A stretch of 41,911 nucleotides of DNA, from positions 1-41,911 of IMG/VR virus record IMGVR_UViG_3300029893_000022, one strand, 5' to 3'. Below are positions 2,416 through 41,911 of this stretch, in pieces. The notes beneath the pieces are model-generated. The model made no database searches. It worked only from the letters and a program-made list of their open reading frames with translations, and had not been told where the DNA came from. Position 1 is the first letter of the stretch, and the number at the start of each line of letters is the position of its first letter. The position numbers and the translations under genes were made by a program. This stretch comes from a virus.

Positions 2416-2790
2416 CTAGTCCTCAGGAGGCAACAGCCCCTCCGCTTTTGCCCTTTCACGGGTCATATAGACCTCGTGAGCAGCGAAATTAATTCGCTCT
2501 TTTTTGTCCGGTCTCCCGGACAAGCCTTCGAAGAATTTCTGAGTTGGCTTTTTGGGGAAGTAGTTATTCCCCAGACCCAACTCATTTTTTAAGTTTTTCG
2601 AAGTTATCACCCGCACCGGATACGGGACGTTTGCCAGACCCGCCTGCGAAGAACAGAACTTACAAACGTGAACATACGTCTGAGACTCATTGTCCCAGGC
2701 CTCGTTGTTTGTCTCATCTCTGCACATTGTGCAGGGGGCCCATGTCCAGCCCCCCCTGTCATCATACTTTCTCACCCATTCGGCCTTCAC
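2416..2790 (-). CDS. Cys-rich (zinc-ribbon-like) hypothetical protein
   Basis: Likely GTG start at 2790 with AGGAGA 5 nt upstream (the longer listed ORF 2416..3006 runs through copy 2 of the RNA element); 124 aa with C-x2-C ... C-x2-C (CTMC, CKFC). Confidence 0.5.
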   Translation of the reverse strand: MKAEWVRKYDDRGGWTWAPCTMCRDETNNEAWDNESQTYVHVCKFCSSQAGLANVPYPVRVITSKNLKNELGLGNNYFPKKPTQKFFEGLSGRPDKKERINFAAHEVYMTRERAKAEGLLPPED

Positions 2791-2929
2791 TTTGTTCTCC
2801 TGCCCGCCTATGACCCGACGGGCGGGGTCTAGTGATTGATTGCCCATGAGCGCCGCGGCATCTCTGCCGCACCGGACTTCCACCGGTCGCCCACTCCGAG
2901 AGCGGGCGGGCCTTGCGGACTGGGAGGGG
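2791..2929 (-). ncRNA. candidate structured intercistronic RNA element, copy 2
   Basis: Starts right after the stop of gene 2930..3148. Same three-hairpin core as copy 1; the first stem carries compensatory changes (CGCCCGCUC/GAGUGGGCG with a G-U pair, plus 2888-2908) and the second keeps the stem with a GAGA tetraloop (plus 2855-2870). Confidence 0.35.
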
Positions 2930-3148
2930 CTACACAGGCTCGAAGAGCAACTCCCGTTCCCCCTCCACTGTTCCCCAGAAGCGACCGTTTGTCGCCTCGT
3001 CAACAACGATTTTTCCGACCGTCGGGTCGTACTCGATCATCATCTCAACAATTTCCCCCAGCCTGCCTACCTCCAGATACCCCCCCCAACGGGGGGTAAG
3101 GATTCTAACCATCCGCTCGTCATTTTCATAGTCCTTAATAGTAGTCAT
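2930..3148 (-). CDS. hypothetical protein (72 aa)
   Basis: GGAGGAGAcagaaATG RBS; first cistron of the minus-strand small-gene operon. Confidence 0.5.
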   Translation of the reverse strand: MTTIKDYENDERMVRILTPRWGGYLEVGRLGEIVEMMIEYDPTVGKIVVDEATNGRFWGTVEGERELLFEPV

Positions 3149-3979: not shown

Positions 3980-4766
3980 AAGGTCGCTTATCGCGAGCGT
4001 AATGTTTTGAGGTTTTGTAGGTGATCGCAACGCATATTGACATACCCCCACATCTGGGGGTATGTCGCGTTATATGGGGGTTGCATCCAGTAGTTGGTGG
4101 TGTATCAGTAGATGCCGGAGTGTATCAGATGTATCAAGATGCCGGCTGATTGTATCAGTGTATCATTGGATTGTATCATTGTATCAACCCGTACATGTGG
4201 GTGGTAGTGTCTCGTACGGTGTACATACCCCCATATATAGGGGTATTGAGAAGCAATAAATTGTATCAGTGTATCATCTATCTATCATAGGTTAAGCAAC
4301 CAAGGCAACCAAGGCAACCAAGGCAACCAGAGCAACCCCTATATATAGCCATCAATGCCGTATATGGATACTACCCCCCATATATGGGGGTATAATAATT
4401 GATGATTTTTAATCTTCAATTAATGATTAAGCAACCTTTTTAAGCAACCTTAAGCAACCTGTAATGTATCTATATAATACTTGTACAATACCTAAACATT
4501 GATTATATGTATGTATAGGTTGCTTAAGTTGCCTTGGTTGCTTAAGTTGCCTTGGTTGCTCTGGTTGCTTAACCTCGTAAGCTTTAATATTTCATAACCA
4601 TACCAGTATATCAATCACTATTGCATTTTAGGGCTACTTTATGCCATTTTAGGGGTGTTTTAAGCCAAAAAATGCCCTAAATGGGCATCTCAGATTGTTT
4701 CCGGGCCGGCCAGGTCAGCCCGAAAAGGTGTCGAGGTTAAGCAACCAAGGCAACCGGTGCAACCTT
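3980..4766. repeat. iteron-rich AT-rich noncoding region (candidate replication origin or packaging/partition site)
   Basis: TGTATCA repeats (4101-4187, 4261-4277); C/G-tract palindromes (4043-4062, 4225-4246, 4372-4392); GCAACCAAG tandem repeats (4296-4337) with an inverted array (4518-4573); TAAGCAACC x3 (4428-4460); AT-rich core (about 4393-4430); GCAACC cluster at 4738-4764. Confidence 0.5.
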
Positions 4767-14934: not shown

Positions 14935-17900
14935 ATGACCGATCGTCCACCTTCCTCTCCTGATGCAGGTGAAATCTGGCGCGGCGTCTTCGGCGATCTT
15001 TATGGATTGGATCGCCCGGAAAGACAGCCGATGCGCCCAGAAGCTGTCGAGCGCCCAGAAATACCCAGGAATCTTGTCAGTTATGACAGTGAACGTCTCA
15101 AGACGCTCTATGGATTGACGCGCGCCACAACCAGACCGGAATGGATGGATGACCGCGTAAGCGGATTGATTGAGCAAGCGTACAACTTCTATGAGCAAAA
15201 CAATCTTTTGCCTACGGAAGTAGTCAGCTTGCTGGATGCAATTCCACTCGAAGGAATCCAAATGCCGCAAATTGGCGCCGAACCATTGCCGGAAATTGCC
15301 CCCGGACAGGCGCGTTATTACGGCATGACTGAGGAAGAATGGAATTCTTTAGACCCGTGGCAGCGATTGAGCATGCGCGTCATGGGAACGGCTGTTCCGG
15401 CGGGAGCGGCAACCGGTGCGGTAGCCGGCATTGCCGGAGGTGGTGGTCTTCAAGGTGGGATCGTCGGCGCGGCCATTGGTACAGGTTTGGGAGTCCTCGG
15501 ACAGAAGTTTCCGGCGCTGCAAACCTTCATGGATCGTGTGCTGGGCGTTGCCTGGCGCACCGGTAAACGCGCCGTTGGCACTGTTGGACTTGGATTGTAT
15601 TCGCTCAAACCTGGCGATGATTTCACGTTTGGTGAATGGATACGCAATCTGGATGATGCCTGGTATGCGTCTGAGCATGCGGCGCGGGTAATGCCGCTTG
15701 CAAGTCCTATGGAAGCATTTACCCGCCTTCAACCATTCCAAATACCGGTGGCCGGAATGCGCACCGGACTGGAAAGTATCCAACGCGGATTGGAAGGGCT
15801 TGGATTTGGTCGGCAGGCAGAACAAGTAGAAAAGGTTTCTCAACTATTTCCAGGGATAAAATCTCCGGTTGAATTGCGCATTGAGGATGGAAAATGGAAA
15901 GTATCCACGGTGCCCCGCCCGCAGATGGAAGCCTGGGAATTTGGAACGACTAAAACTCGCATCATCCCTGAAGAACAACAAGGCGCGCGGGCGCTGATCG
16001 AATATATGCGCCGTCTGGATTCTATCCCACCAGAACAGTGGGCGGAGGGACGTGCTGCCCTGGATGAAGAATTCGTGCAGCGTTATGGATTCCAGGGACA
16101 GATGAAAGAATTGTTGGGGTCTATCTTTCTCGATCCGTTTAATTATTTGGGGGGATGGACAACGAAAATAGCCGGGGGTGTGGGGAAATTACTCGGCGCA
16201 GCACCGGAGTTTGCAAATGCAATGGAAGGTGCAGCAGGGCCGGTTCAGGGTGTCCAACGCTTCAAAGCCCTGACGCGCACAATGGAGTTTGCGGATTGGA
16301 AACAATTATCGCCCATCGAGAAATGGTTGAGCGGCGCTTATTCCCCGGACGGAACACCAAAATTGTTGGAGAAGATGCCCAATGGCGGCATCCGTGGCGC
16401 AGCTTATAAGGCACTTGGCGGAGACAGCAGTCCTATCGCACGATCTTTTGGTTATCTGTTTCATCTGACGCCAGAGTCCAGAGTAAAAGAACTGGTCAAT
16501 GTTGGGTCTCAGAATATTGCCATGATCGCAGATCGGGCGGCAATGAACCCTGAACAATTCGTGAAGTTCGTGGAATTGATCGCGGATAATCAGATCGAAG
16601 CCGCTGCGCAATTGTCGGTAAAGGCATTTGGGGGGCCGGAGATGGGAGCGCTGATTCCTTCGTTGCGCGAGAATTTGCCCCTGTTGAAACAGGCCTTGGA
16701 AGAATATAACTCACCGCAGGCGCGCCAGATGCGCATTGCATTGCAGAATATCGCCAAAGTGAACAACATAGACGAAGCGACATTGATAAAACGCTTGATG
16801 GATATTCGCAGTGGTGATCGCAATGCTTTGACTTTCTTCAATAGCCTGCGAGAAACTGCTCAACGTGTGGGGGATGATGCAGCACAGGCGATATTGAAAG
16901 CCATTGATGATGGAGAATTGACGCCGGAAAGTCTGAAAGAATTTGCCGATGCAGTGAGCAGCAAGGGCGCAGTGTGGAGCGATAATCAGATGATCGGCAA
17001 GATGTATGCCACACTGATAGATGGCGTATCCCAATGGGCAGTGGATTATTATGGAGTAAAGCCCGATTCCTTTTCCATTCGATTGGGGAATATCGTTCGT
17101 CAGGTACAAGGACTGGTATTTCTGGATGCTTCGCCATCATATGCATTGCAGAACATTATAGACAACACATTGAAGATCACACGTGAAGGGGGTATTCTTG
17201 GATTTGCTATTTCCGGCGGGGCGCAAAAGTATATTGCGGATTTCTATCATGGGATTGCGCCAGAAAGTCTTGTGAAAGGTGGCTTGGCTGAATACTCATT
17301 CGGCGGAAAGGCATTGCCGGGTGCCATTGCCAAAGCAAAAGAAACACCGCCGGATGCAATTTCCAGAGCCGAAAAATTGATAAGCGGAATTCGGGAGAAG
17401 CTGCCTGTCTCGATGGGCAGATTATCCGCCAGGGCTGAGGTAAAAATGCGCACCGCAGCCTTTGCGGATGGTTTGCGCAAAGCAATGAACAATCTGTGGC
17501 AACCCGGAAAAGGATTTGATCGTTTGCCCGCAGAACTCGAAAATGCAATCGGCAAAGAAAATGCTCATGCTCTCTATAACAAGATCGCCGGGCTGCATGA
17601 TGGACAGAAGATTATTGATAGCCTGTTCGCCGAAGCAGATATTGGGCGGGTGGTAGATGAAGCTGTTGGGGATGCTGCTTCTGCTTTAGGGAAAGACGCT
17701 ACGGCGGCACGCCAATTGTTGGATCAGCTTGGCATCTTAGATCAGTTAAGAGAGAAATTACCGCCAGGGGCTACGAGCAATCAAATACATGCCGCCTTTG
17801 ATGACGTAGTGAAACAGGCGCGTCAGGAATTTGCCAAACAACATCGAGAACAAGTCATGGCGCGTTTCGAGAAGGCGATTAATAAAAGCTCCGAAGAAGG

Positions 17901-20900
17901 AACATTAGGGACATTGGCGGTTTTCGATGATATTTCTCAGATGCATTATGAGCAACGCATGTATGACATCAGTCAGTGGGATGCCATTTTTTCTGGGAAA
18001 GAGATCGGCGTTCGAGGAGATGATATTTCGGCGGCTGTGATTCGCCAGTATGAACAACAACGAGATGCGTACAAAATGCTCAATGAAAACGTACGCGCTA
18101 TGTACGCCGGTGTCTCTGAGGCGTTGGGAGTTGACAGCGCTTATGGAAAATTCTTTGCCAATACTGCTTTGGATGAACATAATCTGTGGCGTGGTTTTTA
18201 CGACACGGTTCTGGCGGACTATAAACGATTGCGGGCGGAAGCTGCGAAGCTGAAAGGAAAAGATGTACCGGCTCAGGAATGGAAGCGCATCAGCGATCTT
18301 TGGGCGGAAGTGAGAGAAAAGAACCGTCAGCTCTATATCGAGACCAATACCAGAGCTTTGGAGATACAGGCGGCGCGGGATACGAAAGTCGTAGAGATGA
18401 TTGGGACGCGCTATGGCGAAGAAGCTGCTGTGGCTGCCAAACAATGGTTGGATGGAGTACGAAACATAACAGACGAACTTTATACTGCTGTTGAAAACTT
18501 CCGCCTGAGCCTGGAAGAGATGCCACGTGAACAACGCGGCCCGGCGTGGGAGAAATTCTGGCGCGAGACCTATCAACCGTTGATGGCAAGACGCCTCGCC
18601 GAGAACCTGGCTGGCGCACGCGAAGTCTATGCACGGGCAATGCAAATCGAAAAATCTGGAGCGGCAAGCCCACCCAGAGCCGAACCTATTGCGCCTGCCG
18701 AGAAATGGGTTCAGGAAGCACGCCAGCAGAAATTATATGAAATGACCGGCCTCACCGAACAAGATCGTTTGTTTGTGATAGAGATGCGCCGTCTGGCTTC
18801 TGAGTATGGAATTCCGAGCGCAGATGAAAGTGGAAGACCGATTTCCGGTTTCGATAAACGCCTTATCAATACGATCAATAAATATGGTGGGACAGATTAT
18901 AAAGATATTCTGGAGATCAATCCTGAAATTGCACGCCAGGCATTGGAGCGGCATGCAATTGAAAAAGGAATTGAATTACCGCAAGAACCGCGCGTTGCTG
19001 ATTTTCCAGAACCTGATCCAGACGAGGTTCTGAAACTAGCACAGACGATTGAACAGGAACGGCTTGAAGGCGCATTGCGCGGATGGACAGAAGATTTACC
19101 CGGATACAAGCCGATTGAAAAGAAACCGACCGCTCCGACAGGAGCAGATGTGATTGGCGTAGCACCTCCAGGGACGATAGATGGTTTATCTGGGATGCCG
19201 CTTTATGACATCAATTGGCAAGGATGGAATACTGAGGTCAGCCCATTGTTGCGCGCATTGGAAGATACTATGCTTGATCCGACAAAGCGAGCAGTGACGG
19301 CTAAGAATCTGAATCTTACACCAGAACAAACCAAAGCCTTGCGTTTGTGGGCAGAGAAAGTTCGTGGACAATTGACAGATGCCAAGTTCGCTGCCACAAA
19401 GTTTTCTGAGATCAGTATGAATATGGCGATGCTGGATTATGATCGGCGTTATGGTTTAGATAATATTGCCAACTTATTCATCCCTTATCAATTCTGGTAC
19501 ACGCGTTCTGCACTGAACTGGATGCTTACTGCTATTGACCGACCGGCGTGGTTCGTGCAATGGCATCGCATCCGTGAAATGCAAGAAGAATTAGCCAGAC
19601 CGGTGGAAGGATTTCCTTCGCGTCTGGCGGGAAAGCTGGCTATTCCAATGCCTTTTATGCCGGAGGGTTGGGGCAACACGATTTATGTTGATCCGTGGCA
19701 TCAGATATTCGGTTTCGAAAGTATGCTTGCCCAGGTAACGCGGCCGTTGGCACGTGATATTTCTAATCGTGTTGGGCGTGCCACTTATATTATTGACGAA
19801 ATGATACAGAATGGCGAGATTACACCCGAAGAGGGCGATCAAGCCAAAAAGAGTCAATCCGGCGCAATATGGGAACAAGCATATAGACAAGCAGAAGCCG
19901 AAGTGAAGGCAGAAGTTTCCACACCGCTGGATTTGGTCAACACTGTGTTCTCATTTAGCTTGCCGTTGCAATGGGCATTAGAACGAACAGGATTATTACA
20001 GGATCGTTATGGTGGTGGTGTTGGTAGTTACCCATTGTTCTCCACCATTCAGAACATCACCAGCTTCATGACGCCAGGTGGAATCAACATACCGGAGACA
20101 ATATCCAATGCATTGGGAGCGGCTGAAAATCCAGAAGCCTATCGTGGTTTTCTGTATGAATACTATATTCAGCGCGAACTGGCGAACATGGCTGCTAATG
20201 GTGCAGATATTGAATTGATCCGCAAAGCAATGGTAGATAAGAGCGGCCCGCTTTGGGAAGCGGCGGAAAGAACTGCGGCACAACAACAGGCGGTTCGTTC
20301 TTTTGCGTCTATCTTCTGGGCGGACTTCTTTCCAGAGGGCGAAGAACAACAGAGAAAGTTGAGAACTCTATTCGAGCAATATGCCGATCAAGGAAAGCTG
20401 ACGGAGTTTTTCGATAAATATCCAGAGTATCAGGCGCGCATGATGCTTAGAAACTGGGATGATCCAGAAGCCATGATGCGTCAATTTTTGGTCAGCAATG
20501 CCTGGGATGCCTATTATAAATTGAGCGATTTAGAGAGACGCGCTGTGCGTGAACAGTTCGGCGATCTCTTTGCGGATAGTTTCTTGAACAAAGAGACGCG
20601 TAGCTATGACAGCATTGATACAGAGACGCTTGCCGGATGGGTGCGTGCTATGCGTGGGGTTGTTCCTGAAACTGCGCCAGGGGGGATGCCACAGATTGAA
20701 CTGCCGACGCCGGAATTAAGTGCGCTCTATGACCAATATAATTCGCTTCCTGGATCAGATTTGATGAAATTCTACTGGTCATTGCCGGAAGCGATGCGAG
20801 ATGAATTCAAGCGCAATCATCCAGAATATTATCAGTATCAGGATGCGAAGGCGATCTTTTTGATGCAGCATCCTGATCTATTGCCATACATCATTAGCGA

Positions 20901-21384
20901 GGATAGCTATCTTGCTGGCGCATCGCCAGAAGTTTTACAGGAATATTATTTCTATCTGGCTGAAAGAGCAATGTATTTTCCTATGATTAAGGCGACACAG
21001 AATCAATATTACAGCCTTCCAAAGAATGAACGTCGGGCATTTCTGGCGCAGCACCCAGAATTGAAAGCCTATTGGGATTGGAATAGAGATCGGAAAGATC
21101 AATTATCTCCAATGGCGCGTTATTATGTGATAGGCGAAGAGGGGATGCGCAAAGAAGCGCTGGGGAATTTATATGAGCCGGAATATGAAGTGAACTATGA
21201 GGTATTCCCAACAGAATTATTGACATTTCTGCTGGCAGAATCGCTTCTCAATCGTCCGCTGGGGCCGAGCAGCATGGCGACTCTGCGTGATATTTGGGAA
21301 CAAGAGCGCCCGCCCATGTCTTTTGAGGATTGGCTTGCTCTGGTAAGACAGGGATTTGCATGGGATCCAATCAATGCAAGATAA
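14935..21384 (+). CDS. giant protein (2149 aa), function unknown; possibly virion-internal or ejection protein
   Basis: A 6450-nt open frame between portal and scaffold/capsid genes; N-terminal Gly-rich hydrophobic segment (GTAVPAGAATGAVAGIAGGGGLQGGIVGAAIGTGLGVLG); otherwise largely helical and charged; no Walker or polymerase motif recognised. Confidence 0.8.
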   Translation: MTDRPPSSPDAGEIWRGVFGDLYGLDRPERQPMRPEAVERPEIPRNLVSYDSERLKTLYGLTRATTRPEWMDDRVSGLIEQAYNFYEQNNLLPTEVVSLLDAIPLEGIQMPQIGAEPLPEIAPGQARYYGMTEEEWNSLDPWQRLSMRVMGTAVPAGAATGAVAGIAGGGGLQGGIVGAAIGTGLGVLGQKFPALQTFMDRVLGVAWRTGKRAVGTVGLGLYSLKPGDDFTFGEWIRNLDDAWYASEHAARVMPLASPMEAFTRLQPFQIPVAGMRTGLESIQRGLEGLGFGRQAEQVEKVSQLFPGIKSPVELRIEDGKWKVSTVPRPQMEAWEFGTTKTRIIPEEQQGARALIEYMRRLDSIPPEQWAEGRAALDEEFVQRYGFQGQMKELLGSIFLDPFNYLGGWTTKIAGGVGKLLGAAPEFANAMEGAAGPVQGVQRFKALTRTMEFADWKQLSPIEKWLSGAYSPDGTPKLLEKMPNGGIRGAAYKALGGDSSPIARSFGYLFHLTPESRVKELVNVGSQNIAMIADRAAMNPEQFVKFVELIADNQIEAAAQLSVKAFGGPEMGALIPSLRENLPLLKQALEEYNSPQARQMRIALQNIAKVNNIDEATLIKRLMDIRSGDRNALTFFNSLRETAQRVGDDAAQAILKAIDDGELTPESLKEFADAVSSKGAVWSDNQMIGKMYATLIDGVSQWAVDYYGVKPDSFSIRLGNIVRQVQGLVFLDASPSYALQNIIDNTLKITREGGILGFAISGGAQKYIADFYHGIAPESLVKGGLAEYSFGGKALPGAIAKAKETPPDAISRAEKLISGIREKLPVSMGRLSARAEVKMRTAAFADGLRKAMNNLWQPGKGFDRLPAELENAIGKENAHALYNKIAGLHDGQKIIDSLFAEADIGRVVDEAVGDAASALGKDATAARQLLDQLGILDQLREKLPPGATSNQIHAAFDDVVKQARQEFAKQHREQVMARFEKAINKSSEEGTLGTLAVFDDISQMHYEQRMYDISQWDAIFSGKEIGVRGDDISAAVIRQYEQQRDAYKMLNENVRAMYAGVSEALGVDSAYGKFFANTALDEHNLWRGFYDTVLADYKRLRAEAAKLKGKDVPAQEWKRISDLWAEVREKNRQLYIETNTRALEIQAARDTKVVEMIGTRYGEEAAVAAKQWLDGVRNITDELYTAVENFRLSLEEMPREQRGPAWEKFWRETYQPLMARRLAENLAGAREVYARAMQIEKSGAASPPRAEPIAPAEKWVQEARQQKLYEMTGLTEQDRLFVIEMRRLASEYGIPSADESGRPISGFDKRLINTINKYGGTDYKDILEINPEIARQALERHAIEKGIELPQEPRVADFPEPDPDEVLKLAQTIEQERLEGALRGWTEDLPGYKPIEKKPTAPTGADVIGVAPPGTIDGLSGMPLYDINWQGWNTEVSPLLRALEDTMLDPTKRAVTAKNLNLTPEQTKALRLWAEKVRGQLTDAKFAATKFSEISMNMAMLDYDRRYGLDNIANLFIPYQFWYTRSALNWMLTAIDRPAWFVQWHRIREMQEELARPVEGFPSRLAGKLAIPMPFMPEGWGNTIYVDPWHQIFGFESMLAQVTRPLARDISNRVGRATYIIDEMIQNGEITPEEGDQAKKSQSGAIWEQAYRQAEAEVKAEVSTPLDLVNTVFSFSLPLQWALERTGLLQDRYGGGVGSYPLFSTIQNITSFMTPGGINIPETISNALGAAENPEAYRGFLYEYYIQRELANMAANGADIELIRKAMVDKSGPLWEAAERTAAQQQAVRSFASIFWADFFPEGEEQQRKLRTLFEQYADQGKLTEFFDKYPEYQARMMLRNWDDPEAMMRQFLVSNAWDAYYKLSDLERRAVREQFGDLFADSFLNKETRSYDSIDTETLAGWVRAMRGVVPETAPGGMPQIELPTPELSALYDQYNSLPGSDLMKFYWSLPEAMRDEFKRNHPEYYQYQDAKAIFLMQHPDLLPYIISEDSYLAGASPEVLQEYYFYLAERAMYFPMIKATQNQYYSLPKNERRAFLAQHPELKAYWDWNRDRKDQLSPMARYYVIGEEGMRKEALGNLYEPEYEVNYEVFPTELLTFLLAESLLNRPLGPSSMATLRDIWEQERPPMSFEDWLALVRQGFAWDPINAR

Positions 21385-30146: not shown

Positions 30147-32884
30147 CAGCTACAGCCAGTATCTTCAATGAACGCAGTACGCACCATGTTGTCTTATCTT
30201 CCGGGGCTACAAGCGTTGGATTGATTTTGAGTGATAACCGTGGGAATGCATCGCCGCTGGCGTTTGACATTACCCCTATGGAAAGTGGTACGATCAAGAC
30301 ATTTCAAGGGGTGGAGAAGTATAGCGATCTGGATATGCCCTATGAAAGCATTGTGCAGGAAGAGTGGGGCGGCGGGCAAGGAAACTTTGACTTCGATAAA
30401 GATCATTCCATGTACAAAGATGGGATGATAGATACCATTCGTTCTGAACAAATGATCGTTCCGGGGATGGCAGTATATGCTCAAGGGTTTTACCGAAATC
30501 ATGCGACTTCGTGGGATTATCGCACCTCTGCCGGTGATGCAGTGCAATATTCCGCTTATGAGCTGGAAAGTTATCCAAAGGCGATTGCGCAAAAATTTAC
30601 TGCGTCTTTAAATTTCAATGCAAAATATATCACGTTCGTCTATAAGAGGACAGACCCCCTCGATCCTGCCGGAAATATTATGATTTCGATCTGTGCGGAT
30701 GATGCAGGAGGAAGCAAGCCCGGAACTGCACTACAATTTTATGCGATGCCTGCATTGCCATATCCCTATGAATGGCGAACTGTAAGGGTCGTATCTGATA
30801 CGACTTTGGCTTTGACCTCCGGTACTAGTTATTGGGTGAAATTCGGCGGCATGTCGGGCGGAGCCGGAACAAGAAGCGCCATTCTAACCAATTCAATTGC
30901 CAGAACAACATATCAAACGACGGACGGCACGAACTGGACAAGCTTAGGAAAAAGTATTTATTTTCGCCTCACGGATTCAGATACGACGCGCAACTGTAAA
31001 GCTCACTTTGTCGAATATAAAGGCGGCTTGTTATGGGTGGCGCAATACGATAACAATTCTCCATCTAAATTATTTGTTTATCCACATGTTCCATTTGGCG
31101 TTGCAACCGGAACGCAAACTTCATCAACCTTGCAAGACACAACCAGAACCTGGACAACGGATACATTTAAGGGTGGTATTGTAAAAATTATGCGTGGCAC
31201 GGGAAGCGATCAAAAGCAACCCTGGCGATTGATTACCGGCAATACAGCAAATACTCTGAGCGTTTCTCCAGATTGGGACGTTACACCTGTCTCTGCGTCT
31301 TCCGAATATGTCATTATAGGATCAGATCAATTTTATGAATTTACTGCATTTGATACAAACTATGATGTCGTTGTGAAAGATGTTCTGGCAGCAAATGGCG
31401 CACTCTATTTTGCCAATGGCGACAGCACGGCAATGGTGCGCATGGTTGGATATAACAATGCCGGAACGTGGACATGGGATTATTCAGACCTGGGCGGATA
31501 TACGGCCGGCAGTCCGGCAGAGACAGGGCAATTCAGCCACTTACTCTATGCGGGAGATGAGGCGGGGAATTTCGTTTGGGGAGCGACGGGCGGCTTTCCA
31601 CCACAGCTCTATAAGGCAGAACCGGTAGACTTGACCGGAACAAGCATCCCCGGAAGTCCGTCGCTTACTTTCAATGCTTATGATGGGGCGAATGGAAACA
31701 TAGGGGATTTATATCAACGAATTACCGGATTGATTCAGTATGGCACTTATGGCAATGTGCATGTATTAAAGGAAGAGGGCATCTGGCAAGTCTATAACGG
31801 ACGCTCATTTCGTATCAGTTCGGAAGAACAACGCGTTGCTACCGATTATCGCTCTGGAAAAGCCCGAACGACAAAGGGCAGTTATCTGTACTTCGCCTGG
31901 CATGATACAGTATTCCGCTACTATGAAGGAGTCTTCGATAACATCGGCCCCAATTGGGGGGGAAAGAGTTTGCCGGATGATCGGCGGGGTGTTATCTCGG
32001 CTATTGTTTCTTATCCTGGAATGCTGATCGTTGCAATTGATGGCGGAACGAGTAAGTATTCCAGCATCATGGCATATAACGATCAGGGATGGTGTACGCT
32101 TTATGTAGCACCAGATGTTGGAATGCGCATACAGTCTCTCTATATCCAGAGCATGCCGGGAGATAATGTAGATCGGCTATGGTTTTCTTGCGGTGCAGAC
32201 ATTCTTTGGATGCCGTTAAGCGTCGATCCTTACAATCATCCACGGGTTCAATATCATTTCTATCCTTTCTGGTGTGGGGGCATATTGGAGACATCGGATT
32301 ATTATCTTTCGATGAATGATATTGAGAAGTATTATCGCAAGCTGAAAATAAGCTGGAATGTCAAATTGCACCGTGATCCGGTTGGCGCAATCTATATCAA
32401 ATCAATAGACGCTGCAGGAGATGATGACACCTTAGGCGCAATCTATGTCCAAGACTACGAGGCATCCAGTGGCTCTGTCGTTGTGGATAAATCTGGTAAG
32501 AAGATACGTTTCATATTATGCTTCGACAATTACTGGAGCGACAATACGCCGCGCATCATTGCAACGACAATCGAGGCAGTGAAACGTTTCGATCAGGAAT
32601 ATACGATCTTGCTGACGGCGCGCCTGGAAGATAACGAAGTCAATCTGCTGGGCAATCCAGACGATTACCGCACTGCATTAGATAAATACAATGCATTGAT
32701 TACATTGCAAAACACGACTGCGCCGGTGACCATGCATAGCATGATTAAATCATTGGACAGCAAGTCGGTATTTGTGGATCGAGTGAAGATCAGACCGGTA
32801 TGGGAACATCTGGAAGAACGTGATCGCTCGAATGTGGAACGCTATCTGGTTGAGATTGCGCTGATAGATGCACTGACATCATGA
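30143..32884 (+). CDS. large tail protein (913 aa; putative tailspike or receptor-binding protein)
   Basis: Long beta-rich sequence with many Gly/Thr/Ser/Tyr/Trp; largest gene of the tail region. Confidence 0.6.
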   Translation: MTATASIFNERSTHHVVLSSGATSVGLILSDNRGNASPLAFDITPMESGTIKTFQGVEKYSDLDMPYESIVQEEWGGGQGNFDFDKDHSMYKDGMIDTIRSEQMIVPGMAVYAQGFYRNHATSWDYRTSAGDAVQYSAYELESYPKAIAQKFTASLNFNAKYITFVYKRTDPLDPAGNIMISICADDAGGSKPGTALQFYAMPALPYPYEWRTVRVVSDTTLALTSGTSYWVKFGGMSGGAGTRSAILTNSIARTTYQTTDGTNWTSLGKSIYFRLTDSDTTRNCKAHFVEYKGGLLWVAQYDNNSPSKLFVYPHVPFGVATGTQTSSTLQDTTRTWTTDTFKGGIVKIMRGTGSDQKQPWRLITGNTANTLSVSPDWDVTPVSASSEYVIIGSDQFYEFTAFDTNYDVVVKDVLAANGALYFANGDSTAMVRMVGYNNAGTWTWDYSDLGGYTAGSPAETGQFSHLLYAGDEAGNFVWGATGGFPPQLYKAEPVDLTGTSIPGSPSLTFNAYDGANGNIGDLYQRITGLIQYGTYGNVHVLKEEGIWQVYNGRSFRISSEEQRVATDYRSGKARTTKGSYLYFAWHDTVFRYYEGVFDNIGPNWGGKSLPDDRRGVISAIVSYPGMLIVAIDGGTSKYSSIMAYNDQGWCTLYVAPDVGMRIQSLYIQSMPGDNVDRLWFSCGADILWMPLSVDPYNHPRVQYHFYPFWCGGILETSDYYLSMNDIEKYYRKLKISWNVKLHRDPVGAIYIKSIDAAGDDDTLGAIYVQDYEASSGSVVVDKSGKKIRFILCFDNYWSDNTPRIIATTIEAVKRFDQEYTILLTARLEDNEVNLLGNPDDYRTALDKYNALITLQNTTAPVTMHSMIKSLDSKSVFVDRVKIRPVWEHLEERDRSNVERYLVEIALIDALTS

Positions 32885-34761: not shown

Positions 34762-35059
34762 GACCTGGGTCTTCGTAGCGGTGTGGCTCGCGCCGACCGC
34801 TACGATAGCACCAGGTTTCGATAATATCCCCTTTCTTGATGCGAATGAGGGGATGAGTGGAGAGGGGTTTGTAATCGTCAGTTGAGATCATAGGTAATGA
34901 AGTCAAAATCTTCCCGTGGCAAGGTATTTTCGAAGAGTGTCTTGTCCGTATAATATACCACGCGATCTGGCAGAAGCGAGGGATAGGTATTCTCCATCTT
35001 CTGATAGTAGAAGATATGTTGATGATAGTTGAACAGGATCAGTTGAATGTAATTCATAG

Positions 35060-35610
35060 GTCGCTCATTGTATATGGGTTACTAATTGACATGGCTTGCA
35101 CGGAGTTTTTGGGTTACTTCCATCGCTTAGCTCGCTTCTCTGTAATGGGTTACTTTGTTAGCTTGGCTCGCTTACGCTAGATGGGTTACTCCTCTCGAAT
35201 GGCTCGCTTCGTTCCGTTGGGTTACTTGCTGTGCTTGGCTCGCTTCTGCGACATGGGTCACTCAACTCATATGGCTCACTTCCTCAGTTTGGGTTACTCA
35301 CTGAGCTTGGCTCGCTTGTATATCATGGGTTACTCCTTGAGACTGGCTCGCTTGGGTAGCATGGGTTACTCATAATCGGTGGCTCGCTTCATCACCCTGG
35401 GTTACTCGCCAGCAATGGCTCGCTTACCCACTTTGGGTTACTTGCTTCGCTTGGCTCGCTTTCTTTTGATGGGTTACTTCACCCTCTTGGCTCGCTTTCT
35501 TAGCTTGGGTTACTTGCCGAGTTTGGCTCGCTTGTATATCATGGGTTACTCACTAACACTGGCTCGCTTCCGTCTTCTGGGTTACTCCGCGGTAATGGCT
35601 CGATTGGGCT
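35060..35610. repeat. tandem array A of a 36-bp dimeric repeat (18-bp half-units TGGGTTACT+N9 and TGGCTCGCTT+N8), about 15 units
   Basis: Read directly: the two cores alternate with strict 18-bp spacing; variable segments are pyrimidine-rich on the plus strand; downstream (3-prime) of minus-strand gene 35619..36311. Confidence 0.85.
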
Positions 35611-35618
35611 TGCCGAAA

Positions 35619-36311
35619 TTATATCTCATCATACCACCCAAACTCTTCCGGCGTATATAGGCGATGATGATTGTTCTCTGCCACAATCCAGGGATCGCTA
35701 ACAGGCAATCCCTCTAACTTGCGCCATACCAGCCACAGGTGCGATAACCACACTTTTATCATCTTGCGCATGGCGGCGTTATGCTTGTGCAGCTTTGTCC
35801 AATCTTCGCGGCTTTCGTACTCCTCGCGCGCCTTGTCGTAAATGTCGCGATAGGGACTGCCGGAGCGCAGGAAGGATGAACCGATCAAATAGCAGGTTGT
35901 CTTGAGGCGAATGTTGTAATGGAGTTTCTCGCCCTTGACCGGCTTCTCGCGTTCTCCGTTGATGACGGCATAACCTGCATACCGCCAAAGGGCGCTGATG
36001 GTATCGGCGCGGTGGATGTCAATCATCACCACCGTTTTCAGAGCAAGTGTCTTTCCGACGCCTCTCACGCGGCACATATATTCCACAATCGGAAAATCAT
36101 CCGCCAAATCTTTGATGGATGAATCCAGCTCATCTTCCAACAACTGGAATTTGGTCATCCACTGCTCGATATAATGGCGGTACGTTGGATTATCAGTACC
36201 GCGGTCTATTGCGGACAGGCGATTGCTGAATTGAATGCGTGCTTTCTGGATGATTCGGTCTCGCAGATCAACCAACGCACGGGCTAAAACTGAAATAGAT
36301 GGGTCTGTCAT
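35619..36311 (-). CDS. IS110-family recombinase C-terminal domain-like protein (coiled coil plus helix-hairpin-helix), lacking the N-terminal DEDD catalytic domain
   Basis: AAGGAGAG RBS and ATG at 36311; VRGVGKTLALKTVVMIDIHRADTISALWRYAGYAV and HNAAMRKMIKVWLSHLWLVWRK resemble the conserved C-terminal (Transposase_20-type) region of IS110/IS116/IS902 proteins; only 230 aa; no DEDD motifs. Confidence 0.6.
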   Translation of the reverse strand: MTDPSISVLARALVDLRDRIIQKARIQFSNRLSAIDRGTDNPTYRHYIEQWMTKFQLLEDELDSSIKDLADDFPIVEYMCRVRGVGKTLALKTVVMIDIHRADTISALWRYAGYAVINGEREKPVKGEKLHYNIRLKTTCYLIGSSFLRSGSPYRDIYDKAREEYESREDWTKLHKHNAAMRKMIKVWLSHLWLVWRKLEGLPVSDPWIVAENNHHRLYTPEEFGWYDEI

Positions 36312-36361
36312 GATATTCTCTCCTTATATAGTATGTATGGTAACGCTTACTGATCTTAGGT

Positions 36362-37215
36362 TTGCTTCCCAATTCCGGCTCGCTCTCAACGAATGGACTG
36401 CTCTTCCTTAATGGCTCGCTCTTTTTATCTGGGTTTCTGCATCGAAATAGCTCGCTCCTCTCGTCTGGATTGATTGTTCATTGTGGCTCGCTTATGCTCC
36501 ATGGGTTACTTTTCGATCCTGGCTCGCTTTCCGTCTCTGGGTTACTTAGAGATGCTGGCTCGCTTGCGCGGGATGGGTTACTCACGTTGCCTGGCTCGCT
36601 TCATTATCCTGGGTTACTTGACCTTTGTGGCTCGCTTACTTGGTTTTGGTTACTCGTCAATTATGGCTCGCTTCTCGCATATGGGTTACTCCGTTATTCT
36701 GGCTCGCTTGCGCAGGTTGGGTTACTCACTGCGTATGGCTCGCTTACTTGCCATGGGTTACTCACCGCGTCTGGCTCGCTTGCATATCCTGGGTTACTCC
36801 TGAACTTTGGCTCGCTTCAGCATCGTGGGTTACTCTCCGCGTCTGGCTCGATTGCAGTAGTTGGGTTGCTTTTACAGTTCGGCTCGCTTCCCGCACGTGG
36901 GTTATGGGTTACTCATCTTCAGTGGCTCGCTTTCGGTTTCTGGGTTACTTTCGCCTACTGGCTCGCTTTCTGACTCTGGATTACTTGTATGCAATGGCTC
37001 GCTTACACATCGTGGGTTACTCTCCGTGTCTGGCTCGCTTGCATATCATGGGTTACTCCTAAACAATGAATGGCTCGCTTGCGCGGGATGGATTACTCAC
37101 GTTGCCTGGCTCGCTTCTCCAGCTTGGGTTACTCAAGTTGCCTGGCTCGCTTCGTCATCATGGGTTACTTTTCAAGGGTGGCTCGCTTTATTCATTCAGA
37201 ATGGCTCTTCCATTC
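36362..37215. repeat. tandem array B of the same 36-bp dimeric repeat, about 23 units
   Basis: Same cores and orientation as array A; includes segmental duplications (for example GGCTCGCTTGCGCGGGATGGgTTACTCACGTTGCCTGGCTCGCTT at about 36563 and 37071); upstream (5-prime) of gene 35619..36311. Confidence 0.85.
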
Positions 37216-37410
37216 CTCGCGCGGATCAATACCGAGTTCACGACAGATATAGATGGCTTCATCGCGCAATATCTTGTTGGACTCCACCTGATCTGACAGG
37301 AATTCGAACGCTGCATCTTTGCCATGACGACGCATCTTATTAATCGCCGTCTGACGCGCTATGACAAAAGGCATGTAAGACAATGGAATGTCGTCCATCT
37401 TATCCTCCAT
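37192..37410 (-). CDS. hypothetical protein
   Basis: 72-aa ORF; an internal ATG at 37398 is preceded by GGAGGA. Confidence 0.4.
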   Translation of the reverse strand: MEDKMDDIPLSYMPFVIARQTAINKMRRHGKDAAFEFLSDQVESNKILRDEAIYICRELGIDPREEWKSHSE

Positions 37411-38556: not shown

Positions 38557-38780
38557 CAGTAAGCCTCTAATCCGAGATAATGAATAATTGTCAAGGCGGC
38601 TTCATCTGCCGAATTACAATAGGCGCAATAGTAATCTTTATGCCCAAAATTTATTTCGGTGTCACTGAGTGCAATGAATAATCCTTGATATTGACCGCGT
38701 GGATAGGGCAGGAAGAACAATAATTCCTTTGATTCCCGCGCAGCCCATTCAAGCAATGCGATCATCTCTTCAATATTCAT
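38556..38780 (-). CDS. hypothetical protein
   Basis: 74-aa ORF. Confidence 0.45.
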   Translation of the reverse strand: MNIEEMIALLEWAARESKELLFFLPYPRGQYQGLFIALSDTEINFGHKDYYCAYCNSADEAALTIIHYLGLEAY

Positions 38781-39298
38781 ATCTCACCACAATCCAAAAC
38801 TTTATAACGGTGTATCACTGCTCCTGCCTCATCCATCTCTACAGGCGATAAATCTTTACCGCGCTGGTCTGGTCTGAGATAAGGCAGATCAATTGACCAC
38901 ACTTCTATTGCAGCAGCCGCGATGGACAGCGGAATATTTCCTATGACAATCCTGCCATCAATTTGAGACACATCTTCTACATGGTCAATGACTTTGCAGG
39001 AGGTATATCCGCGTTGTCGTAGCCACTCAATTGCTCCGGCATGGCGAGAGACAATGATGTAATAATCTGAAGAATGATTCGCCAAAACAAACTGGAGTAC
39101 ATTCTTCTCAATTGCTTCATCCACCAATGCTTCTGGATAACCATCCATAAGCGCATAGTGGCGAGCTTTGTCTTTCCAGCCTTCTTTCTCAAGATCAGAA
39201 AGAGATGGTTCTCGTGAAAGATACCAGGATTCTATGGCAGCCAACCTATAATTGCCTGCATCAACATATTGTTCAATTAGTTTATATGTGTCGTTCAT
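38777..39298 (-). CDS. hypothetical protein (173 aa)
   Basis: AGGAGAAAGA RBS; no family recognised. Confidence 0.5.
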   Translation of the reverse strand: MNDTYKLIEQYVDAGNYRLAAIESWYLSREPSLSDLEKEGWKDKARHYALMDGYPEALVDEAIEKNVLQFVLANHSSDYYIIVSRHAGAIEWLRQRGYTSCKVIDHVEDVSQIDGRIVIGNIPLSIAAAAIEVWSIDLPYLRPDQRGKDLSPVEMDEAGAVIHRYKVLDCGEI

Positions 39299-41775: not shown

Positions 41776-41911
41776 GTTCCTCTCCTTTCATTAGTGCCTT
41801 GACCAGCCGCGGATCATAGCGGCTGTTGGGCAAGTTACGGGCTGCCCGATACAGATACTCTGGGTCGCCGATGGCGATCAGAGCCTCGATCAGCCGCGGA
41901 TCGTAGCGGTC
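41762..41911 (-). CDS. C-terminal end of a tandem-repeat protein, 5-prime part beyond the window end
   Basis: Minus-strand frame open from 41911, reading DRYDPRLIEALIAIGDPEYLYRAARNLPNSRYDPRLVKALMKGEEHGHP then TGA at 41764-41762; same frame (mod 3) as the partial gene at 1..598. Confidence 0.5.
   Translation of the reverse strand, partial: DRYDPRLIEALIAIGDPEYLYRAARNLPNSRYDPRLVKALMKGEEHGHP

Follow-up and report, generated by a model that had tools for sequence, protein, structure and literature searches.

What function is served by two long arrays of short, alternating repeats that flank a single small gene in a phage genome? This question is raised by a locus in IMG/VR virus record IMGVR_UViG_3300029893_000022, which we analyzed over its full length of 41,911 nucleotides (the window hereafter). 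The ends of the window are identical over 79 nt (positions 1 to 79 equal 41833 to 41911), and the record therefore represents a circularly closed genome of ~41,832 bp. An earlier sequence-only reading of this DNA described two arrays of 36-bp units, ~15 and ~23 in number, around a minus-strand gene (35619..36311); our counts and the open reading frame (ORF) agree with that description. We conclude with high confidence that the locus is a dual-repeat TIGR-TasA system, that is, an RNA-guide locus, carried by a complete phage genome of ~41.8 kb. TIGR-Tas systems, relatives of IS110 bridge-RNA recombinases and of box C/D snoRNPs, were published as a class in 2025 (Faure et al., Science 2025, PMC12045711); 6,685 arrays and ~20,000 tas loci have been catalogued, and NCBI maintains a family model. 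The locus comprises three features, listed in the order of the minus strand:

36339..37209, minus strand: upstream TIGR array (array B), 23 units, defined by motif positions, phase, and information content
35619..36311, minus strand: tasA, encoding a 230-aa coiled-coil plus Nop protein, with ribosome-binding site AAGGAGAG upstream of the ATG
35059..35605, minus strand: downstream TIGR array (array A), 15 units, with edge and loop repeats as in array B

TIGR arrays are defined by two distinct, alternating repeats of 8 to 12 nt, called edge and loop repeats, which are separated by spacers of ~9 nt and give rise to 36-nt tigRNAs (PMC12045711). In an exact-motif search of both strands of the window, the plus-strand motifs TGGGTTACT and TGGCTCGCTT were each found in 29 copies, alternating at 18-nt steps and confined to 35075-35605 and 36376-37188; no exact copy of either was detected outside the two arrays. 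The strict dimeric unit and the common orientation of the arrays noted earlier are thus borne out, and Tandem Repeats Finder reported periods of 36, 72, 108, and 144 at the arrays. Read on the minus strand, which is also the strand of the gene, the unit consists of the edge repeat AAGCGAGCCA, an 8-nt spacer A, the loop repeat RAGUAACCCA, and an 8-nt spacer B (10 + 8 + 10 + 8 = 36 nt). Across 32 stacked clean units, the information content was ~1.7 to 2.0 bits per position in the repeats and 0.03 to 0.46 bits in the two 8-nt variable blocks, with a single half-variable R/Y position (1.0 bit) adjoining the TGGGTTACT core. Each guide therefore contains 16 variable nt, the figure also given for SpTIGR. 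With degenerate terminal repeats included, the arrays extend over 35059-35605 (array A) and 36339-37188 (array B) and together provide ~38 guides.

The boundaries of the arrays match the published layout, in that edge repeats, full or degenerate, bound both arrays at start and end. Array B opens with a full edge repeat at 37188-37179, ahead of which lies a possible truncated edge repeat, AAGAGCCA, at 37209-37202; the stop codon of an upstream 72-aa ORF (37192..37410, minus strand) is located 3 nt before the first full repeat. Toward the tasA ribosome-binding site the units of this array become degenerate, and a degenerate edge repeat (36349-36339) closes it just ahead of that site. The first edge repeat of array A follows 13 nt past the tasA stop codon. 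Its last two edge repeats (35101-35092 and 35068-35059) are degenerate, and the ATG of a 59-aa ORF follows immediately. Degenerate units are thus found at the left-hand end of both arrays. Two units of array B are out of phase, one through a 7-nt partial duplication (36898-36904) and the other through a 12-nt spacer (37058-37070).

The spacers are 58 to 60% purine on the minus strand, which upholds, in mild form, the earlier remark that the variable segments are pyrimidine rich on the plus strand. Duplicated units had also been noted and do exist: the units at 36592 and 37107 have identical spacer pairs. Beyond this whole-unit duplication, 10 A-A and 9 B-B spacer pairs fell within two mismatches of each other, compared to ~3.2 expected from shuffled spacers. 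These spacer families, along with the duplicated unit, are consistent with array growth through duplication followed by divergence. An NCBI contig and a Logan contig are both 100% identical to the window and hence carry no information on array polymorphism.

Other ways of reading the repeat DNA were rejected. Plus-strand ORFs of 203, 145, and 160 aa that run across the arrays are repeat artifacts, since every frame is open and the indels that break the phase also change the frame. Complementarity of spacer A with spacer B within units did not exceed that of mispaired spacers (p ~0.3), which disfavors a stem-loop, and no Rfam family matched within the locus. A CRISPR array would have a single repeat of ~25 to 37 nt with spacers of similar size, rather than two alternating 10-nt repeats with 8-nt spacers, and no core cas gene is present; the geometry had correctly been called non-CRISPR.

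We then examined the protein encoded between the arrays. Its ORF has a maximum length of 230 aa, with no upstream extension possible. For the NCBIfam equivalog NF052498, named "TIGR-Tas system RNA-guided endonuclease," the protein scored 183.5 bits, where the cut-off is 100. In a phmmer search of PDB sequences it matched TaTasR (9mty_A, E value of 1.9e-28) and the SpTasH chains (2.4e-15), with the Tas alignments spanning residues 11 to 226; TaTasR itself is 331 aa long, the length of 9mty_A (PMC12045711, Fig. 2 legend). An AlphaFold2 model built with 49 homologues had a mean pLDDT of 94.7 and placed a helical domain after a pair of long helices at the N terminus. When this model was compared to the PDB with Foldseek, TasH ranked first (TMq 0.88), followed by TasR (0.76) and IS621/ISCro4 (~0.6), with Nop5 (1nt2, 0.36) far behind. 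A Pfam scan of the protein returned nothing relevant, with no match to HNH, RuvC, or DEDD domains, and PADLOC reported nothing for it. More than 460 homologues of ~225 to 245 aa (range, 222 to 246 aa) share many invariant residues. Because the ORF cannot exceed 230 aa, no nuclease domain is present, and the homologues are of the same length, the protein is classified by sequence and by predicted fold as TasA, a solo coiled-coil/Nop TIGR-associated protein without a nuclease domain. The name of NF052498 includes "RNA-guided endonuclease," and automatic annotation would therefore overstate the activity of this protein.

Residues with assigned roles in SpTasH were located in an alignment of the 49-sequence family. 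The aromatic-basic pair W203/K211 that unwinds DNA in SpTasH (10.64898/2026.08.11.744272) aligns with invariant Y141 and K/R149, and H215, conserved in 46 of the 49 sequences, is the counterpart of the processing histidine H296. The repeats likewise match the published description of TIGR repeats in several features. Both AAGCGAGCCA and RAGUAACCCA end in CCA, corresponding to box C, on the tas strand; the edge repeat can form an extra C4-G7 pair beside the box pair, like the published edge repeat; and the loop repeat has an A-rich UAAC center, as in the TasR loop repeat.

The association of arrays with tas genes extends well beyond this phage. In a search that began from the protein, a 36-nt array was found beside the gene, and co-oriented with it, in 17 of 18 homologue loci (30 to 72% identity), which comprise 16 IMG/VR viral contigs and one prophage present in two assemblies. 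The motif xGCGAGCC(A) occurs on the tas-coding strand in all 17 array-bearing loci. A search that began from the repeats (AAGCGAGCCA-N8-RAGTAACCCA) recovered 26 viral contigs, 16 of which encode a Tas homologue, co-oriented with the array in every case (16/16). The co-occurrence of repeats and homologues that the sequence-only reading had proposed as a check was thus found from both directions. Phages that otherwise differ in gene content retain both the pairing of array and gene and their strand relation. The constancy of this strand relation, together with the position of box C, is the reason for assigning transcription to the minus strand.

Several of these related loci are of interest in their own right. 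One is a TasA with 68% identity (8001-8711 of L017, an 819-kb contig of JGI 3300025161). It is encoded, along with its array, among the early genes of an integrated prophage, where a divergently oriented cI-like helix-turn-helix repressor is only a few genes away and the terminase genes lie downstream; this shows that the TasA family also occurs in temperate phages. A homologue with 54% identity was found in the genome of Ornatilinea apprima, a member of the Chloroflexota (L019). Four repeat-bearing contigs (L032, L038, L039, and L041) have bona fide dual-repeat TIGR arrays with edge repeat AAGCGAGCCA; on L039 (2872-6024, minus strand) there are 44 units in four clusters. In the DNA examined from these four contigs (L039 in part), no Tas gene was detected by family hidden Markov model, hhalign, NCBIfam, PDB search, or loose tblastn, and the Tas protein for such orphan arrays may be encoded elsewhere or supplied in trans. 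A speculative reading, drawn by analogy with phage mini-CRISPR arrays that borrow host Cas proteins, is that some phages have such arrays but no tas gene at all and rely on TasA made by co-resident elements.

From these data and the published systems, a working mechanism can be proposed. Both arrays would be transcribed from the minus strand with tasA, probably within a minus-strand operon that enters them; the 3-nt gap upstream of array B, its reach to the tasA ribosome-binding site, and the start of array A 13 nt past the stop codon make a single read-through transcript plausible. TasA would dimerize through its N-terminal coiled coil, and its two Nop domains would bind the ends of the edge and loop repeats, AG (box D) and CCA (box C). 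Cleavage of the precursor within each edge repeat would release 36-nt tigRNAs. In each of these the loop repeat would lie in the middle, preceded by spacer A and followed by spacer B (8 nt each); the 3′ half of one edge repeat would form the start and the 5′ half of the next the end. As has been shown for other Tas proteins, the tigRNA would guide the dimer to a 16-bp DNA site, where spacer A would pair with one strand and spacer B with a neighboring stretch of the other, with no need for a protospacer-adjacent motif (PAM). Because TasA has no nuclease domain, it would be expected to bind and bend DNA but not to cut it. Most likely, this would repress the transcription, or block the replication, of host or rival mobile-element DNA, and ~38 guides would give many targets.

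TasA is known to bind 36-nt RNAs, and one TasA has been reported to repress transcription reversibly in Escherichia coli in an RNA-guided manner and to bind target DNA in electrophoretic mobility shift assays (Xu et al. 2026, bioRxiv 10.64898/2026.09.09.750476). A more specific scenario, which we advance tentatively and judge unlikely to hold in full, is that the phage uses its library of ~38 guides with a noncutting TasA as a multiplexed silencer of host or rival-phage genes, and that the library grows by in situ duplication of units and point divergence rather than by capture of target DNA.

Several observations weigh against the assignment to TIGR-TasA or against parts of the mechanism. Box D, at the start of both the edge and the loop repeats, reads AG in place of the canonical UG. 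Between the two repeats the box covaries, with AG/AG in this clade and UG/UG in two other loci (L011 and L015); covariation of divergent box motifs between the two repeats has been published (PMC12045711), and AG in both repeats would fit this pattern. The catalytic tyrosine of SpTasH, Y289, aligns with W208 (Y in 41 of the 49 family sequences, W in 8); TaTasR also aligns with Trp at this position. Given Trp at the processing-Tyr position, autonomous self-processing is uncertain. A scan of the minus strand around the arrays found no sigma-70-like promoter and no intrinsic terminator, although a rho-independent terminator after the array has been described as typical for TIGR. The transcribed strand is itself an inference. 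In addition, 10 of the 26 repeat-bearing contigs show no Tas gene in the contig DNA examined.

To the same side of the balance belong the target searches. Two guide geometries were scanned, spacer A plus the reverse complement (rc) of spacer B [A+rc(B)] and rcA+B, together with two wrong-geometry controls and 20 mispaired-spacer controls; the published "8-nt 3′ overhang" and "C-5 rule" favor A+rc(B), but one published sentence conflicts with them, and both geometries were therefore tested. When the 36 regular guides were compared with both strands of the phage's own genome outside the arrays, there was no exact match and one match with a single mismatch. That match, from a degenerate unit to 32299-32314, was not above the controls. 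Matches in 200 kb of related loci were likewise at control level. Regulation of the phage's own genome by the guides is not supported. Chance matches to a 16-mer are expected many times in large collections, a problem that the literature also notes, and difficulty in finding TIGR targets has been reported for the family as a whole.

Two explanations outside the TIGR-Tas class were considered, the first of which had been raised in the sequence-only reading. If the locus were an iteron-type replicon, a copy-control locus, or a partition centromere, the arrays would work in cis and the protein would bind their repeats as double-stranded DNA. In favor of this, many direct repeats lie on both sides of one small gene, and the operons of some published TasA loci include ParB-like genes, so that a connection with segregation would not be far-fetched. 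Iterons and parS sites, however, are conserved throughout, whereas half of each 18-nt step here is hypervariable; the protein has the Tas-type RNA-binding Nop fold instead of a Rep, ParB, or winged-helix fold; and neither Rep nor ParB is encoded among the neighbors of the locus. Arrays and gene also stay together in a constant strand relation across unrelated phage backbones, and a better candidate for an origin lies at 4296-4667 (described below). We regard the replicon and centromere proposals as highly improbable. A decayed IS110-family insertion sequence, in which a transposase had lost its DEDD domain and the repeats were debris or a bridge-RNA relic, would explain why PHROG 4285, annotated "transposase," matches the protein at 1.9e-36, why 8 of 120 listed homologues have a precomputed match to PF02371 (Transposase_20), and why IS621 and ISCro4 are structural neighbors. 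The Tas matches are nevertheless far stronger than those to IS110, and the protein itself matched neither DEDD models nor, even at E ≤ 10, PF02371. It begins at the coiled coil, with an array upstream of its ATG; the >460 homologues of equal length with many invariant residues point to a selected full-length protein; and the repeats form a 38-unit array rather than a single two-loop bridge RNA, with nothing in Rfam there. Such decay has a negligible chance of being the explanation. Of the earlier description, the resemblance to the IS110 C-terminal part survives as a shared coiled-coil/Nop-type module without DEDD, with a much closer relation to Tas proteins. The proposed check against IS110 domain models gave the predicted absence of the N-terminal domain and no match to the C-terminal one, and the label "domain truncated" does not suit a member of a large full-length family. 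The suggestion of repeat RNA bound by the protein was essentially correct, being a TIGR guide-RNA array with its TasA effector. The raw-sequence reading had in this respect recovered a true RNA-guide locus, and its IS110, iteron, and centromere interpretations give way to TIGR-TasA.

Within the TIGR-TasA assignment, the output could differ from transcriptional silencing. The system might block the replication or inheritance of rival plasmids or phages, or RNA-guided DNA bending might aid recombination or integration. TasR targeting has been published to cause strong plasmid loss, and TasA has been proposed to act in competition between mobile genetic elements or as RNA-guided help for integrases. 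The homologue of L017 in a prophage early region beside a cI-like repressor would suit such roles, as would the position of the present locus in an operon that carries RecT and Csx16-like genes. On the other hand, the sole direct assay of a TasA so far showed transcriptional repression, no integrase or ParB gene is located beside the locus, and no known target discriminates between the options. We therefore consider an output of this kind possible but not probable.

As a dual-repeat TIGR-TasA system, the locus resembles published examples such as FpTIGR of Flavonifractor plautii (PMC12045711) in its solo ~230-aa coiled-coil plus Nop protein, its CCA box C, its arrays upstream and downstream of tas in the same orientation, its phage-borne location, and the lack of adaptation genes. 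It differs from them in having box D AG instead of UG in both repeats, spacers of 8 + 8 nt (as in SpTIGR) instead of 9 + 9, rather long arrays (15 and 23 units, where 5 to 15 are most common), Trp at the processing-Tyr position, and no terminator detected past the array. The same coiled-coil/Nop core is found in SpTasH of Salicola phage CGphi29 (9w03/9w04) and in TaTasR (9mty), and the aromatic-basic unwinding pair and C-terminal histidine are conserved as well. Those proteins, however, carry an N-terminal HNH or RuvC domain and cut both DNA strands, in contrast to the binding-only activity predicted here. IS110/IS621 recombinases possess a homologous RNA-binding coiled-coil/Nop-type C-terminal module (Foldseek probability of 1.0) and a guide RNA that also has two bipartite loops. 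Unlike them, the present locus has no DEDD/RuvC-like domain, no single bridge RNA, and no insertion sequence ends, and instead has many short guides in arrays.

More distant parallels also exist. In archaeal and eukaryotic box C/D small ribonucleoproteins (Nop5/Nop56/58), a Nop-domain dimer on a coiled coil reads box C/D motifs around two short guides; these particles, in contrast, target RNA for 2′-O-methylation with fibrillarin and L7Ae, and the structural match is weak. CRISPR arrays, particularly those of the nuclease-free types IV and V-M, are similarly built of repeats and variable spacers and processed into guides, and interference is possible there without cleavage. TIGR arrays differ in their two alternating 10-nt repeats and split 8-nt spacers on opposite DNA strands, and TIGR systems differ in the absence of a PAM, the absence of cas1 and cas2, and an unrelated effector fold.

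The locus brings no new principle, as this kind of system has been known since 2025, but it is a clean and complete example: two arrays, ~38 guides, and a nuclease-free effector in a closed ~41.8-kb phage genome. What is particular to it is the combination of box D AG, 8 + 8-nt spacers, arrays on both sides of the gene, Trp at the processing-Tyr position, and the complete phage context. It could serve the study of natural targets, of processing with Trp in place of the catalytic Tyr, and of array evolution.

The genome surrounding the locus encodes a large terminase, an SU10-type capsid protein, an M23 peptidase, RecT, a YqaJ-like protein, and an AAA_25 helicase; a megablast search with 22 kb of the window against INPHARED phages gave no match, and the accessions did not turn up in a literature search. 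The sole Cas-related match was in a 173-aa protein (38777-39298, minus strand) whose C-terminal half matches Csx16/Cas_VVA1548 (Pfam, 5e-17; PADLOC, 3.9e-18). Its gene belongs to the same minus-strand gene block as the TIGR array, which lies ~1.6 kb downstream. Elsewhere, Csx16 domains are tied to type I and type III CRISPR systems and CARF proteins, and by its sequence the phage protein could be a counterdefense factor.

In a region of lower GC content at 4296-4667, an AT-rich core is surrounded by repeats, namely GCAACCAAG in four to five copies, TTAAGCAACCT in three, and GGTTGCTTAAGTTGCCTT in inverted orientation, together with a CCCCCCATATATGGGGG palindrome. GCAACC repeats occur here in inverted sets. 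It is located 1.9 kb from the YqaJ-like gene and 4.5 kb from the AAA_25 helicase gene. By its sequence the region resembles a replication origin of the iteron type, a role for which it is a stronger candidate than the TIGR arrays.

Three further features were observed elsewhere in the genome. The structural module contains a plus-strand ORF of 2149 aa (14935-21384) with no Pfam match. An 87-bp tandem repeat (8-523; 5.9 copies) has an open minus-strand frame that encodes 29-aa repeats of the type DPRLVEALIATGDPEWLYRAA.NLPD.RY. Finally, two self-cleaving ribozymes of the twister-sister type (Rfam RF02681; scores of 60.6 and 63 bits, gathering threshold 34) were found on the minus strand at 2319-2412 and 2837-2923, where they bracket or overlap the minus-strand ORF 2416..3006.

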